A stretch of 64,000 bases of DNA from Candidatus Cloacimonadota bacterium (GCA_023421135.1 JAEZUG010000026.1:1155-65154); one strand, 5' to 3'; positions 3,536 through 53,053 are shown, numbered from the stretch's first letter. Numbers and translations: made by a program. The notes: generated from the letters alone by a model not told the origin.

Positions 3536-6500
3536 ATGCCAGAACGCTTGATGCACAAGATGCATAGTTTTGTTCAGGACAGATTCCCGCTCTCCAAGGT
3601 GATTGGGGTGCTCAGTGACAAGAATAGTAGCCACCTTTTGGAGATCACGGGAAAATCGGGATCGGGGAAGTCTTATTTAATTGCCCCAATGCTGGAGGCT
3701 TTGAAGGATAGCTATAGCAAGATTGAGTACTTCTCGCCCAATCCTCTCCGTTACAATCATTTCAGGGATGTAATCAAGATTCTGACGGATATTGAGGATC
3801 AGAAGCTCGAGGACTTGCTGCTTACTCATCAGAAGGATTACAGCACAGGGAAGAGGTACGATTTTTATTACTATATCACCGAGCAATTGCTGCAGGGCAA
3901 GCACTTTCATCAAATGCTGCTGGTGATCGACGATTGTGATGTGCTGGATCATTATACCAGGGACTTTCTGCAGTATTTGGTGCAATATACTGAGGATCTG
4001 GGAGTGCAGATTGTCGTCTTTTCGCAAAAGCGTCTCTTCAGCTTCTCAATCTTGGAACAAGTGCCTTCTGCCAGCGTGGATGAGATTCAAAAGTTACTCA
4101 CCCAACTCTTTCCCCAAACAGACTTTTCTTATGTAAGCGAGAGTGAGATACTCTGCCGGATCAGCGATGGCAATCTGATGATCATGGAGAGGATTCTCAT
4201 GGAGATGCTGAAAGGGAAAAATAAACCCGTCTTTGATCTCAGTCCCTATTTGGAGCGCTCTTTCAATGCAGTTCAGATCTACCACGAAGCTTTGGAAAAG
4301 CTCAGTAAAAGCCAAACTGAGATACTGATCGGTCTCTTTGCTTTGGATGGTCTGGATGAAGAAGGCTTCAAACAAAGCCTGGGAACCGGCAAGACAGCCG
4401 AGAAAGACCTGAACGCTCTATTGGATCTGGGTTTGGTGAATCTGGTTAACCACAGGTTTGTCATTCAAAAGAAGAATGCCTTTTCTGAATGGCTAAAAAA
4501 CAACCCTGGAGTGCTCTCTTCAGCCCTTTTAGTTAAGATCATCAAGCAACTCAGCAAAGATGATGCTACCGGGCAAGTATTGGCCAGGCTGCATTCTCTG
4601 GTTGGCACTTATCCAGAAGAGCTCTTTTTGGGGCTAATGCACCAGTTGGGACTGATCTGTGATAATGAGAATATGATTGCGCTCTTCGAGTATGCACTCA
4701 AGAATACTAAAGAGCCCGAAGCGATGCTAGAGCTCAACCTGAGAATGGGCAGAGCCTTCTCGGATAACAACGAAAAGGACAAGGCCGTTGATTTCTTCCG
4801 CAAGTGTCTGCATATCTGCAGTGAAAACGATCTCCCGGCCGAAGAAGTGATCTTCCAACTTGCCAGTACCCTTTTTGAGATCAATTCATCTGCCTTTGCT
4901 CTGGAGATCATCAAAAAGTACTCACCTTCCACTATAGATCCCTGGATGAAAGTGAGAATCCGTATGCTGAAAGCTGATATCCTGGTAGAATCTGAGGAGT
5001 ATGAGGAGGCTATCCAAACCATCGAAGCAGTGATGCACTCTCTATCCAGCCTGGAAAACAAACTACACAGGTATCTTGCTCAAGCTGAGGCCAAGAAGAT
5101 CAAAGGTAAGATCCATTACTACGTGAATGAATGGGATCAGGCTGAGATAGCCTTCAAAGATGCAGAAAACATGTATCAACTCGCTGAAGACCAGAAGGGT
5201 CTGGCTGCGATATCAAACAACCTGGGTGTGCTATATATGTTCCAGGGTGATTGGGAGAAGAGCGAATACTGCTTTCTCAGAAGTCTTGCCATCGAAAAAG
5301 AGATTTACAACCTTAATGGCATCTCGGTTTGTTACAACAATCTGGGTGGTTTGATGGACGATAAAGGCGATCAGCTCCGTTCCATCTCTTATCTGGAAGA
5401 AGCACTCAAGATTCAGAAGTTGCTCAATGAGCCCTATAATATCTCAAATATATATAATAACATCGGGATTACCCTGATGGATCAGGGGCAATACGCTCAA
5501 GCCGAGGAAGTGCTGGTTAAATCCCTGGAAACGGCTACGGATTTTAACTTTTTCAGGCATATAGTAGCATCTCTTAATAACCTTGGAGCGCTTCACTTTA
5601 AGAAGGGCAATTGGAATCTCTCAATCAGCTATTACGAGCAGGCCATCAGCAAAAGTCAGGAGAATAGCTTCAATGAAGGCCTGCTGAGATCCTTTAATAA
5701 CCTGGGTGAAGTCTATGAGAAACAAAACGAACTAAACTTGGCTTATGATCTCTATTTCAAGGGGCTGGAGCTCTTGAGCACTGTCTCTGATGATTATATC
5801 AAGGCAGAGCTCTATGGTAATCTGGGCTCTGTGCTTACCAAGCTCCACAAGTTCAAAGAAGCCTATGGCTATCTGGTGGAGAGCTTTGATTTCTTCAAAT
5901 CCCTCAATGCCCGTGATAAGATAATGGAAGGATGCCAGAAGCAGGCTTACTACTTTATACTGACTCATAATCTTGAAAGTGCGGATTACTATCTGAAACA
6001 GGCCATGAAGATGGCTCATGAACAGAATCATCCCTTCGAGATTGGCAGATCTTTCTACCTACGGGCACTACTGGAACGTAAGGATCTGGAATCTGCCAAG
6101 ACAAACCTGGAGGAGTCCATCAAGATGTTTGTGCAGACAGGGAGCAGTTACGAGCTTTCTCTGGCAAACTACGAACTGGCTTCGGTTCTCTTTGAGATGA
6201 AGGAATGGGAACCAGCTCTGCAGATTCTGAAGAATAACCGCAAGATCATCCAGGAGTATGGCTCGATTAAGCTGTTGGAACAGAATGATATACTGTTGCA
6301 GAAGATATCCCGGGAGTATTCTGCTCAGATGCAGGACATCAAGTTTGAAGAAAACCTGCTGAATCAATTCTATGAGATCACGCAGAATCTGAACACTCTC
6401 ACCGATTTAGATGTCCTAATCGAGAATTCTCTTTCCAGCCTGATTGAGCTCTCGGAAGCTGATGGAGGAATGCTCTGCCTGCATGAAAGCAGTACCTTGC

Positions 6501-14432: not shown

Positions 14433-14454
14433 CCCAGCTATTAATAGCAGATAA

Positions 14455-14485
14455 ACGGGCAGTGAATACACTGCCCGTTTTTTTT
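14455..14485 (+). terminator. rho-independent terminator after yjbQ-like gene
   Basis: 10-bp stem ACGGGCAGTG/CACTGCCCGT, 4-nt loop, then an 8-T run. Confidence 0.85.
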
Positions 14486-14500
14486 CCTCGTCAAACATAG

Positions 14501-14600
14501 TCCTTTCCTATTCCTCCCCAAGATGATTCTTTAGCAATTCATTAGCGATCCTTTAGCGAAAGCTAAGGAAAGACTTATGCTGTATTAAGTTATGGATAAG
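14501..14600 (+). repeat. dispersed intergenic repeat, copy A (pyrimidine tract + 11-bp TTAGCGATCC-type units + hairpin + conserved tail)
   Basis: CCTTTCCTATTCCTCCCC...GATTCTTTAGCAATTCATTAGCGATCCTTTAGCGAAAGCTAAGGAAAGACTTATGCTGTATTAAGTTATGGATAAG aligns by eye with copies B, C and D. Confidence 0.7.
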
Positions 14601-14678
14601 CAATTGAATAAGGGTCCTATCTACATACAGATGGATAGTTTAGAAGCACCACAGTCAACATATTGGAGTGGATGAAGC

Positions 14679-16188: not shown

Positions 16189-16216
16189 TTGACAGCATTC
16201 CTGCTTTGATTATCTT
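16189..16216 (+). promoter_or_regulatory. putative ssrA promoter
   Basis: TTGACA (16189-16194), 16-nt spacer, TATCTT (16211-16216), about 30 nt upstream of the mature tmRNA 5' end. Confidence 0.3.
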
Positions 16217-16244
16217 GGTTCATAGATCTTTGAACAGAGTATAT

Positions 16245-16592
16245 GGGGGTGACATGGTTTCGACAGGAAACTTTGAGTGTAAGAGATGCATGCCGGAGAC
16301 GCTATCCACTCCGTTATCAAGTGGCACAAAAATTAATTGCAAACAACAACTACTCCTTAGCAGCATAAGCCGCTAACGTCTCACCTTCCCGTTCCGTCGG
16401 GGAAGAATGAGGCGTCGTAACAGTACGGACGCTCCGGGGTTGGTGCCTGAATATCCCGGCTAAGCTAATAGGCTGGGTTGCATAGTGGTCTGATTGCCTT
16501 CCACATGTGATCAAGATTAAAGACAACTAAGCATGTAGATTCTTTTATGGGCAGTTTTTTGGACGCGGGTTCGATACCCGCCACCTCCACCA
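16245..16592 (+). ncRNA. ssrA: tmRNA (transfer-messenger RNA)
   Basis: The 5' GGGGGUG pairs with the 3' CACCUCC-ACCA, including the G3:U alanine identity pair. T-arm GGGTTCGATACCCGC. Tag ORF GCA AAC AAC AAC TAC TCC TTA GCA GCA TAA (16339-16368) encodes ANNNYSLAA. Confidence 0.93.
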
Positions 16593-16596
16593 TTTT

Positions 16597-16626
16597 AGTT
16601 AATAGTGAGAAGTTAATAGTGAATAG
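16597..16626. repeat. left arm of the imperfect inverted repeat flanking the four-helix-bundle gene
   Basis: AGTTAATAGTGAGAAGTTAATAGTGAATAG. The reverse complement of the right arm reads AGTTAATGGTTAATGAGTTAATGGTTAATGG. Confidence 0.55.
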
Positions 16627-16714
16627 AATCTATACTCGTAGCTGGGGAAGTGTTTGCTAAGGTTAAGAGTATAGCTCTGTAAGTTAGATAATATAAAAAT
16701 AGTTTGGAGGGATT

Positions 16715-17086
16715 ATGATGCATACTGATTTGCAAGTCTATAAAGAAAGCATGCTGCTGGTGAAAGATATCTATGACCTGACCAGGAGCTTTCCCAAGGA
16801 TGAACAGTGGGCACTTACATCCCAAATGAAGCGAGCCGTTATATCGATTCCATCAAATCTTGCGGAAGGATCTGGAAGAAGATCAAGCAAAGAACTTTCT
16901 CATTTCTTGAACATTTCTTTGGGCTCTCTATCCGAGCTTGAAACACAGATAGAGATAGCAAACATATTGGGCTTTATAGAAGATAAGAGCATGACAGAGC
17001 CTATTATAGCAAGGTTGAACAGCGTCAAACGCATGCTGGTCGCGCTACAGAAAAGAGTAACTACTCCACCTCTCAGCTCGAAATGA
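16715..17086 (+). CDS. four-helix-bundle protein (23S rRNA intervening-sequence protein family)
   Basis: 123 aa. ...QMKRAVISIPSNLAEGSGRRSSKELSHFLNISLGSLSELETQ... is the family signature (R-A--SI--NIAEG...F-------GS--E). GGAGGG RBS. Confidence 0.8.
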   Translation: MMHTDLQVYKESMLLVKDIYDLTRSFPKDEQWALTSQMKRAVISIPSNLAEGSGRRSSKELSHFLNISLGSLSELETQIEIANILGFIEDKSMTEPIIARLNSVKRMLVALQKRVTTPPLSSK

Positions 17087-17090
17087 CACG

Positions 17091-17125
17091 CCCATTAACC
17101 ATTAACTCATTAACCATTAACTGCG
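17091..17125. repeat. right arm of the imperfect inverted repeat flanking the four-helix-bundle gene
   Basis: CCCATTAACCATTAACTCATTAACCATTAACTGCG. Can pair with 16597-16626 as two 12-16-bp helices around a small internal loop. Confidence 0.55.
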
Positions 17126-28999: not shown

Positions 29000-29225
29000 G
29001 CGCGAGAGCTTCGCTGCAGACGCTTGTGAAGAAGCTTGCGCTAGAATGCTGATGGACTGGATCAGCAGGATAAGATTGAGCTCTGTTGACATGATGATTA
29101 TGATTTACGCAGATTGCTCTCTTTGTAATCCACAAACTCTGGTTATCTATCCTTAGTCTCCCAGCAACACACATTGCTATCTAATCACTTGTCACTATTC
29201 ACCTTATAGTCACCCGCTACACTCA

Positions 29226-29337
29226 TTATCCATAACTTACTATAGGATAAGCTTTTCCTTAGCGTTCGCTAAAGGATCGCTAAGGCATCACTAAAGCATC
29301 ACTAAAGAATCCTGTTAGAAGGGAAGGAGGGAGAAGC
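29226..29337 (-). repeat. dispersed intergenic repeat, copy B (inverted orientation)
   Basis: The reverse complement reads CTTCTCCCTCCTTCCC...GATTCTTTAGTGATGCTTTAGTGATGCCTTAGCGATCCTTTAGCGAACGCTAAGGAAAAGCTTATCCTATAGTAAGTTATGGATAA. Confidence 0.7.
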
Positions 29338-29435
29338 GCATACCACATTCAGGATTCTGAGAAATGAATTGACAGAATAGGCTGATTATCTTGGCATTGA
29401 CTCTAAGTAAAAAATAACGAACTAAGGAGAAACCA

Positions 29436-42839: not shown

Positions 42840-42845
42840 CTACTT

Positions 42846-42952
42846 GTCTCCCCGTTCCCCTCTCATTCGAATCTTTAGCGATCCCTTAGCGATTCTTTAG
42901 CGATCCTTTAGCGAAAGCTAAGGAATAGCTTATCCTATAGTAAGTTATGATT
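42846..42952 (+). repeat. dispersed intergenic repeat, copy C (best-preserved)
   Basis: GTCTCCCCGTTCCCCTCTC...TTTAGCGATCC CTTAGCGATTC TTTAGCGATCC TTTAGCGAAAG CTAAGG AATAGCTTATCCTATAGTAAGTTATGA. Hairpin CCTTTAGC-GAAA-GCTAAGG at 42905-42923. Confidence 0.75.
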
Positions 42953-43121
42953 ACTTGGTGGAATGAGAGACTTGGCTGAGAGATATCTGCATTCATCCCA
43001 TGATCATAAAGACTGGAGAAAGACTTCTGTTGTTATGGAATGCTTAGGTCTGATTATGTTCCCTGAGGATAGGAAGAACTACTTTATGTATGTAAGATTA
43101 TCTTATTGTAATACAGGGAGA

Positions 43122-52679: not shown

Positions 52680-52827
52680 GTGATTAAACCTCACTTGTGA
52701 TTGTGATTGAAGCGATAGATCGCTTTACCCATTTTGGACCTTTCCCATAGCTGGGAACGTCTCATGCATAACTGGTGTTAGTTTGGCAAATCCCTGCTTT
52801 TTCGTCAAGCCTTTTTTATCAGTACTT

Positions 52828-52940
52828 GTTTCCTTCCAGTTGCTCACTCTTTAGATTCCTTAACACTGCCATAGCGATCCCTTAGCGATCCCTTAACGAA
52901 AGCTAAAGAATCCCTTATCCTATAGTAAGTTATGGTTAAT
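52828..52940 (+). repeat. dispersed intergenic repeat, copy D (more degenerate)
   Basis: GTTTCCTTCC...CTCTTTAGATTCCTTAACACTGCCATAGCGATCCCTTAGCGATCCCTTAACGAAAGCTAAAGAATCCCTTATCCTATAGTAAGTTATGGTTAAT. Confidence 0.65.
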
Positions 52941-53053
52941 CTGTTTAATGAGAGAGCTATCAGTGTGCCTCTAGTGGCTCCAATGATAGGCTGGATCTGG
53001 CATAGATAGTGTATTCTACCTGCTTCCCGATCTTAAGGCAGGGCCTCTTAGAA

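Follow-up and report, generated by a model that had tools for sequence, protein, structure and literature searches.

A dispersed, non-coding intergenic repeat family with exactly phased 11-bp units and a conserved tail in Candidatus Cloacimonadota

The repeat that occurs four times in the 64-kb stretch of Cloacimonadota DNA analysed here (the window) is best read as an undescribed, non-coding dispersed repeat family of about 100-150 bp, belonging to the general REP/BOX/MITE class. The initial annotation had offered an element of REP/MITE kind as one reading, and the dispersed, strictly intergenic and non-coding nature of the family supports it. REP, BOX, ERIC and Correia repeats are known from a few cultured phyla, and their maintenance and function are debated; Cloacimonadota are common syntrophs of anaerobic digesters, known only from metagenomes. 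The family thus extends dispersed intergenic repeats to Cloacimonadota. It is unusual in that an exactly phased 11-bp array is joined to an invariant tail, and in that the element at orthologous sites is conserved above the neighbouring coding DNA. We tentatively propose, as a prospect that falls a little short of even, that a sequence-specific protein reads the phased TTAGCGA units and the tail of what would be a REP/BOX/MITE-like DNA element.

Sequence inspection, counts of tail and unit patterns, TRF and a core profile all bear out the four copies and the layout initially described for them, where none would be expected by chance. The 21-nt tail CTTATCCTATAGTAAGTTATG has four matches with at most 3 mismatches in the window (exact in copies B, C and D, 3 mismatches in copy A) versus none in 100 shuffles, and the two-unit pattern TTAGCGATCCTTTAGCGA has 10 matches versus 0.03 expected, every one of them within the four copies. 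TRF reports a period of 11 in copies A, B, C and D, with 3.2, 3.9, 3.8 and 2.5 units, respectively, and a core profile HMM run over the 64-kb window gave no fifth copy. Copy A (14498-14634, + strand; core profile 14498-14595, E 8e-23; right-arm profile 14593-14634) lies between genes for YjbQ/UPF0047 and a T9SS-tail protein and is the most diverged of the four, with three clear units and the mismatched tail. Copy B (29230-29340, − strand; core profile 29333-29230, E 9e-27) has four units, a GAAC loop and an exact tail, and lies between a DUF3795 gene and a ferredoxin-POR operon. Copy C (42840-42990, + strand; core profile 42853-42950), with four units, a GAAA hairpin and an exact tail, lies between the genes for alpha-amylase and LpxL; its left arm begins directly past the alpha-amylase stop codon (42839), and its right arm GAATGAGAGA pairs with the left-arm sequence TCTCATTC in the predicted fold of both strands. 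Copy D (52825-52976, + strand; core profile 52838-52935; right-arm profile 52933-52976), between a methyltransferase-rho operon and a gene for a PHP phosphatase, has an exact tail and the right arm AATGAGAGAGCTATCAGTGTGCC, with units 1 and 2 degenerate. The loops are as first described (GAAA in A, C and D, GAAC in B, with the hairpin arms of copy D mismatched on the + strand), and all four copies do lie strictly between genes, the flanking ORFs having Pfam support. The distance to the adjacent stop codon, given initially as 110-225 nt, comes out nearly the same when measured from the tail end (134, 231, 172 and 119 nt).

The modules follow one order: a pyrimidine-rich left arm, four 11-bp units, a 7-bp hairpin formed from the last unit, a tail of about 30 bp and, in most copies, a right arm. 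The left arm is CT-rich and ends in GATTC in all copies. The right arm, a purine-rich and loose inverted copy of the left arm with the consensus TAATC.GTT.AATGAG.GAGCTATCTG..TGCC, lies about 10-50 nt past the tail in most copies, so that the length of about 100 bp first assigned to the element was too short. In a second subtype (copy B, L002, L003, L005, L010), arrays of purine-rich heptamers continue after the tail in place of the right arm. The direct-repeat array is typified by copy C (42873-42914, + strand), in which four units of (C/T)TTAGCGAT(C/T/G)C give 3.8 TRF copies at period 11 with 0% indels. Each unit consists of a conserved 7-bp core, TTAGCGA, and a variable 4-bp linker. The period is 11, with 0% indels and 2.5-4.3 units per array, in every copy, and both phase and unit number (four, counting the last unit as the 5' arm of the hairpin) are alike in nearly all 17 copies of the family, with three units in copy A and L078C. 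The phasing noted initially is therefore exact in every copy, which keeps an iteron-like protein-binding array plausible. In hairpin P2 (CTTTAGC-GAAA-GCTAAGG, 42908-42925 on the + strand in copy C), the last unit provides the 5' arm of 7 pairs; its loop reads GAAN, with A, C, T or G as fourth base across copies, and does not bear out the GNRA type that had been suggested. The tail (consensus GGAA.(R)GCTTATCCTRTAGTAAGTTATG(G), 42923-42951 on the + strand in copy C) is the most conserved module, near-invariant in all 17 copies. It can form a small hairpin, P3, (A)GCTTA-TCCTRTAG-TAAGT(T), whose inner pairs never vary, and it contains GTAG only in those copies in which it reads CCTGTAG. Across genomes, unit and tail variants such as GCTAATGAAAC versus GCTAAGGAAAG occur.

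Several resemblances to known motifs were considered and set aside. Because the fourth loop base varies, P2 is neither a GNRA tetraloop nor the stable GCGAAAGC DNA mini-hairpin described in a report (PMC13037366). By eye, the tail reads TTATCCTGT where a DnaA box reads TTATCCACA, and clustered Dam GATC sites are not kept from unit to unit. The ATG of the tail is not conserved either, which eliminates it as the start of a small ORF common to the copies; the short ORFs that follow the tail differ between copies, and the element is accordingly counted as non-coding. The tail resembles what we take to be the IncP-type nick site, YATCCTG/Y, and the units contain what is presumably the ssoA CS-6 motif, TAGCGA; these are short matches that serve as leads only, since three window copies have A in place of the G that precedes the putative nick and the vicinity contains neither a relaxase nor a Rep gene.

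In all, 17 distinct copies were found, restricted to Cloacimonadota, where orthologous copies of different genomes are counted apart and identical copies on contigs of the same strain are not. A scan of species-representative genomes with a degenerate hairpin-plus-tail pattern gave 8 loci, all in Candidatus Cloacimonadota MAGs (two MAGs, with seven loci in one), a scan of metagenome contigs gave 2 more copies and syntenic contigs of sister species gave 3 more. The family is confined to one genus- or family-level group of uncultured Cloacimonadota. Its absence from Rfam holds at the gathering score, at which the window yields only tmRNA and L001-L010 yield nothing, and a permissive scan of copy C gave only chance-level matches (E >= 1). 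Neither plasmid nor phage records contain a match to the element, and the literature searched holds no description of Cloacimonadota repeats. A viral origin was rejected, as the 49 matches to a 15-base pattern in viral contigs are all chance matches, none with TTAGCG units upstream. Some public contigs end inside a copy or within a few hundred bases of one (L069, cut inside the element at 4485-4556; L083, 1-262; L002, L007, L009), as expected if the repeat breaks short-read assemblies, and the copy numbers of MAGs are thus likely underestimated. Copies break the assemblies of these MAGs and could serve as markers of the clade.

Window proteins led to syntenic contigs of the same strain, of strains with 98-99% identical proteins and of two sister species (~81-89% identity in the proteins compared); synteny is lost in relatives whose MurJ protein is 69-73% identical to that of the window. 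The element is inherited at the same intergenic sites across species. In one sister species (L071/L079) it is present at both the B site (L079, 16857-16951) and the C site, with core identities to the window of 80% and 81%, respectively. The amylase beside site C is 81% identical in protein and 74% in DNA between the window and this species, with 4-fold sites saturated at 38%, and the spacer around the orthologous elements in L079 cannot be aligned. A core that stays at about 80% in such surroundings indicates that the element changes more slowly than the adjacent coding sequence, and it has varied far less than neutral DNA. Such conservation speaks against mere junk, and either a trans-acting partner or a host function is needed to account for it. 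In the other sister species (L073/L078), the C-site copy (L078C) combines decayed units with an intact tail. The two copies of L079 share GCTAATGAAACGC at a place where all other copies have GCTAA(G/A)GAA, and in copy B the first unit has the same sequence as the second, both differing from those of the ortholog; such shared changes within a genome suggest gene conversion or co-evolution with a common reader. The elements are identical in two strains that differ by about 1% or less from the window, with no insertion polymorphism. In an alignment of 12.9 kb with a strain at 99.0% identity, substitutions number 0 in the element and 6-7 in the adjacent spacer, but purifying selection was not inferred from this comparison because divergence along that contig is patchy, almost absent over 1 kb on the left and 2-5% on the right.

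This conservation bears on the notion that the copies are relics, with no present function, of a burst of a TA-targeting, non-autonomous transposon with terminal inverted repeats, i.e., a neutrally decaying MITE. The consensus arms CTCTCTCATTCGA and TTGAATGAGGGAG are inverted copies of each other, as such an origin predicts, with 9-13 bp of perfect arm pairing in some copies (copy C, L079C), and by eye a TA adjoins the outer GCTC...GAGC in several copies. Size, lack of coding capacity and intergenic position fit as well. Neutral relics would, however, be as unalignable as the surrounding spacer at this distance, and the orthologous copies are not. No empty site was found, the orthologous B and C sites being filled in sister species, and the close strains show no polymorphic insertion. 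In addition, conservation runs about 10 nt past the putative TA, so that no target duplication can be defined. Neutral decay is, for these reasons, a very unlikely account of the family.

Copies are restricted to intergenic spacers, where they occur in both orientations; most adjoin the 3' end of a gene, and they are tied to no particular gene. Convergent, tandem (in both senses) and divergent spacers are all occupied, and the flanking genes are unrelated housekeeping or sensor genes without a common theme, the neighbours being chromosomal housekeeping genes in conserved synteny. The proposed rule that the tail points at a gene 3' end holds for the four window copies and breaks down outside the window, where at least three copies (L004, L006 and L008) face the start of a gene in the same direction; among 12 independent loci, for which ORF lists were read by eye, the tail points toward a gene 3' end in 6 and toward a gene start in these 3. 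The left end follows the 3' end of a same-strand gene in 8 of the 12 loci by the same reading, a split that is not significant. Copies B and D are antisense to both neighbouring genes. Neither the window nor the fetched loci contain a transposase gene, and no rep, par, mob, RAYT (Y1 transposase) or other partner-protein gene lies beside any copy in the fetched neighbourhoods.

The position of the left end after gene 3' ends, as in those eight loci, is compatible with an RNA element of the + strand, which would act as a 3'-UTR module of the upstream gene or as an independent or antisense sRNA, with UUAGCGA binding or titrating an RNA-binding protein and with P2 and P3 as structural parts. The tails of all four window copies run antisense into a gene's 3' end, and the sequence is conserved above neutral expectation, as an RNA element would be. 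Here the copies that are antisense to both neighbours (B and D) do not fit, nor does copy A, which is shut in a 205-nt pocket between two facing intrinsic terminators, 14453-14480 (+) and 14707-14686 (−). RNAalifold predicts two small hairpins only, P2 and P3, of which 93% of cells over the 17 copies are paired on the + strand. Non-Watson-Crick hairpin cells that pair as G-U number 33 on the + strand versus 5 on the − strand, an asymmetry that gives a weak hint in favour of a + strand RNA or a single-strand form. The check for covariation that had been suggested gave 1 compensatory cell in 221, and 452 of 500 column shuffles score at least as high. MFE z-scores, which range between about +0.7 and −3, lie mostly within 1 SD of the shuffle mean on either strand. 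No promoter-like site was seen in or before the element and no terminator after it; the scan gave no sigma-70 promoter above threshold within the four window copies, and no intrinsic terminator (GC-rich hairpin plus T run) lies within any of them on either strand. Together with the lack of an Rfam match, these results leave the initial reading as 3'-UTR or antisense sRNAs without positive support, and an RNA element appears unlikely.

A long-range closing stem, P1, looks convincing by eye in copy C versus L079C, L001 and L004, and was rejected since its duplex energies are no better than those of mononucleotide shuffles in most copies. Left and right arms pair no better within copies than between copies (permutation p = 0.74). 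The pairing is strong in some cases (9 bp in copy C, 13 bp in the ortholog L079C) but not family-wide: the arms pair well in copy C, L079B, L079C, L004, L006 and L002 (about 6 of 17) and poorly in the others. A CsrA-type GGA sponge on the − strand was also dismissed, as GGA falls in the variable linker and is missing from about half of the units.

The composition of the left part raises the possibility of a Rho-loading (rut) site, in which a C-rich, G-poor left arm and the units would provide the Rho hexamer with at least 6 pyrimidine tracts spaced 11 nt apart and end read-through or antisense transcripts. The left arm and units are indeed pyrimidine-rich on the + strand, where TCC or TTC recurs at 11-nt intervals for about 65 nt. 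Intrinsic terminators are absent from the spacers of copies B, C and D, and copy C begins 7 nt past a stop codon. A rut site, however, needs composition rather than a conserved AGCGA core or a 30-bp invariant tail. Its role would also be hard to see for copy A, which sits after a strong intrinsic terminator, or for copies B and D with their antisense placement on both sides, and the 8 of 12 orientation split lends it no significant support. We consider Rho loading extremely improbable.

The phased units could alternatively belong to an activator-dependent outward promoter. Here TATCCT would be the -10 and the last TTAGCG, 17 nt away, a poor -35, with the phased heptamers as activator sites of OmpR/PhoB/SARP type and with a start in TAAGTTA, directed outward from the tail. 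In pho-box and SARP promoters, 7-bp direct repeats with 4-bp linkers stand in phase with the -35, an arrangement that the element shares with respect to its putative -35. Conservation ends abruptly a few bases past the putative start site, and L004, L006 and L008 are followed by a co-directional gene. The window's tmRNA gene (tag peptide ANNNYSLAA) has a canonical TTGACA-N16-TATCTT promoter directly upstream (promoter and gene together at 16190-16218 and 16245-16592), and this apparent promoter makes TATCCT credible as a -10. Cloacimonadota are usually grouped with Bacteroidota; at the tmRNA gene the organism appears, judging by these hexamers, to use promoters of sigma-70 type and not of Bacteroidetes type. 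Against this promoter reading, the -35 matches at 3 of 6 positions and TTAGCG-17-TATCCT at 7 of 12, below the scan threshold in the four window copies, and each of these is directed toward the 3' end of a gene. Between L008 and the start codon of the gene that follows it lies a separate TTGGAA-17-TATAAT promoter for that gene. Furthermore, the spacer is conserved as much as the hexamers, so that conservation is not shaped like a promoter, and the inverted half-unit inside the spacer is left unexplained. An outward promoter is therefore regarded as quite unlikely.

What is constant in the family is its sequence rather than its structure. This points to a sequence-specific protein that acts in trans on all copies, as do the variants that are shared genome-wide and the strict 11-bp phase of a 7-mer whose 4-bp linker is free to vary. 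On the tentatively preferred reading, the element would work, or be retained, as DNA, offering a platform to a protein whose gene lies in another part of the genome and which would read the phased TTAGCGA repeats on one helix face together with the tail. Such a protein could be a mobilising or homogenising enzyme (of transposase, HUH nuclease or recombinase type) or a host DNA-binding protein, and the sequence constancy would derive from protein recognition, helped by gene conversion among copies, and not from a conserved RNA fold. Several findings count against this protein platform: no copy has a partner gene beside it, neither an empty site nor an insertion polymorphism among close strains was seen, clear terminal inverted repeats are present in only about 6 of 17 copies (with arm pairing at p = 0.74), and G-U cells are biased toward the + strand (33 versus 5). 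Just as good an explanation of the conservation would be purifying selection with an RNA or a host regulatory site as its target.

A bolder extension of the protein-platform reading, which we regard as unlikely, is that the repeats form the cis half of a two-part system maintained by selection, in which one protein reads the four phased 11-bp "address" units and the tail at perhaps at least 100 intergenic sites. The protein would then be a domesticated enzyme of HUH or tyrosine-recombinase type, or a DNA binder of nucleoid or partition type. If address and protein co-evolve, this would explain the genome-specific changes that all copies within a genome have in common, and it could also account for the foldbacks of the 11-nt design, with different unit sequences, that stand at the same sites in related genomes.

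Other repeats were seen in these spacers and elsewhere in the window. Purine-rich heptamer arrays (GGGAYTA, GTGAACA, AGTGACA), which recall the heptamer STRR repeats of cyanobacteria, recur in spacers, often directly past an element tail (window 29100-29225 on the − strand; L002 207-229 and 426-455; L003 420-449; L005 1510-1529; L010 5822-5862; L001 7702-7724). The purine-rich heptamer-like repeats that follow copy B, toward lower coordinates, occupy about 140 nt and are absent from the ortholog spacer of L079. In the MAG JAZHDE01, the element is flanked by GTAGGGGCAGACC and its complement GGTCTGCCC (L002; L003 at about 250-330), a REP-like arrangement of GTAG followed by a palindrome half, and this motif hints at a second repeat family in that MAG. 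Just after the tmRNA gene lies a 123-aa gene (16715-17086, + strand) with Pfam matches to 23S_rRNA_IVP and bAvd (four-helix bundle). On either side of this gene stand arrays of ~7-nt repeats, inverted relative to each other: TAGTGAA-like ones at 16596-16626, and four CCATTAA at 17092-17122, which are the reverse complement of GTTAATGG-type units. The stretch 16596-17122 thus has the look of a hairpin-flanked cassette. Near the start of the window, non-coding DNA at 382-448 contains clustered 10-11-nt repeats (TTTGGACT.., TTTGTGACAG, GACAGATTTCA); with a cumulative GC skew minimum at ~2-4 kb, this cluster may be proximal to the replication origin. At the start of the methyltransferase gene (52695-52709), 2.5 copies of TTGTGA (CTTGTGATTGTGATTGAAGC) are retained by every relative down to a PHP identity of 66%, and might serve the methyltransferase-rho operon as a regulatory or leader motif.

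Among the systems with which the family can be compared are foldbacks of 11-nt units in intergenic spacers of other Cloacimonadota (L073 10935-10995, L070 10935-11000, L080 3237-3316, L076 10948-10989), with the units TGCCGCATATC, CTTGGGTGCCT and CCTGCTTGNAN. At the site that holds copy D in the window, two sister species have a different foldback of 11-nt GCCG-type units, and it is there that the L070 and L073 foldbacks sit. The L073 and L080 foldbacks form near-perfect, extremely stable hairpins (DNA-fold z −9 and −8), and that of L070 is far weaker (z −2.7); in a more distant relative, (CTTGGGTGCCT)n / (ACCCAAGAGGC)n make up a near-perfect hairpin within a different spacer. The foldbacks in L073 and L080 resemble the family in their 11-nt units, in a loop made from the last unit, in CT-rich left and GA-rich right arms and in the kind of spacer they occupy. 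They differ in having unrelated unit sequences and no tail. The core and arm profiles do not detect them, and the likeness therefore appears to be architectural only. A "superfamily" with swappable cores, considered since the L070 and L073 foldbacks share the design and one of them shares the 12-mer AATTGAATAAGG with copy A, was rejected on the same grounds.

Phased 11-bp repeats are also a feature of plasmid loci. The double-strand origin of pMV158 has three 11-bp repeats and a nick hairpin, and parC of R1 has 11-bp ParR iterons. Like these loci, the Cloacimonadota element has three to five direct repeats, each exactly 11 bp long and set so that a protein would lie along one helix face, beside a hairpin and a conserved sequence. 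The plasmid loci, in contrast, are single and lie beside the gene for their binding protein, whereas the Cloacimonadota copies are many and chromosomal, with no rep, par or mob gene and no plasmid match. In pMV158, the bind locus is 84 bp from the nick locus, according to excerpts of two reports (PMC1851628, PMC4753449). With MITEs in general, the family shares small size, non-coding sequence and dispersal in multiple copies (4 in 64 kb, at least 7 in one MAG). With those of ERIC and Correia type, it shares size, inverted end arms, placement between genes in both orientations and the occupation of orthologous sites in related species. Unlike in these elements, the arms pair well in a minority of copies, neither a target duplication nor an empty site was found, and a phased array is not a feature of MITEs.

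REPs are imperfect palindromes of 20-40 nt with a 5' GTAG that usually form inverted doublets, whereas the Cloacimonadota element consists mainly of direct repeats plus one short hairpin. In it only stems of 7 and 4-6 bp are palindromic, GTAG is present in some tails only, and no inverted doublets were seen. The likeness to REP/REPIN-RAYT systems lies elsewhere: in both cases the repeats are extragenic, mostly by gene 3' ends, multi-copy and long persistent at orthologous sites, and a constant family sequence is accompanied by genome-specific variants common to the copies of one genome, as if one enzyme reads them all. In modular form, the element recalls the BOX repeats of Streptococcus pneumoniae, which are built as boxA-boxB(n)-boxC with a variable number of 45-bp boxB units. 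Sequence similarity to BOX is lacking and the host phylum is unrelated; in addition, the Cloacimonadota unit measures 11 bp and not 45, is essentially fixed at four rather than variable in number, and is joined to an invariant tail that is unique to this family. Both are nevertheless modular, non-coding intergenic repeats of ~100-200 bp in which an internal tandem module stands between partly complementary ends, with no link to particular genes. REP-RAYT in the manner of maintenance and BOX in modular form thus appear to be the closest analogues of the Cloacimonadota family.
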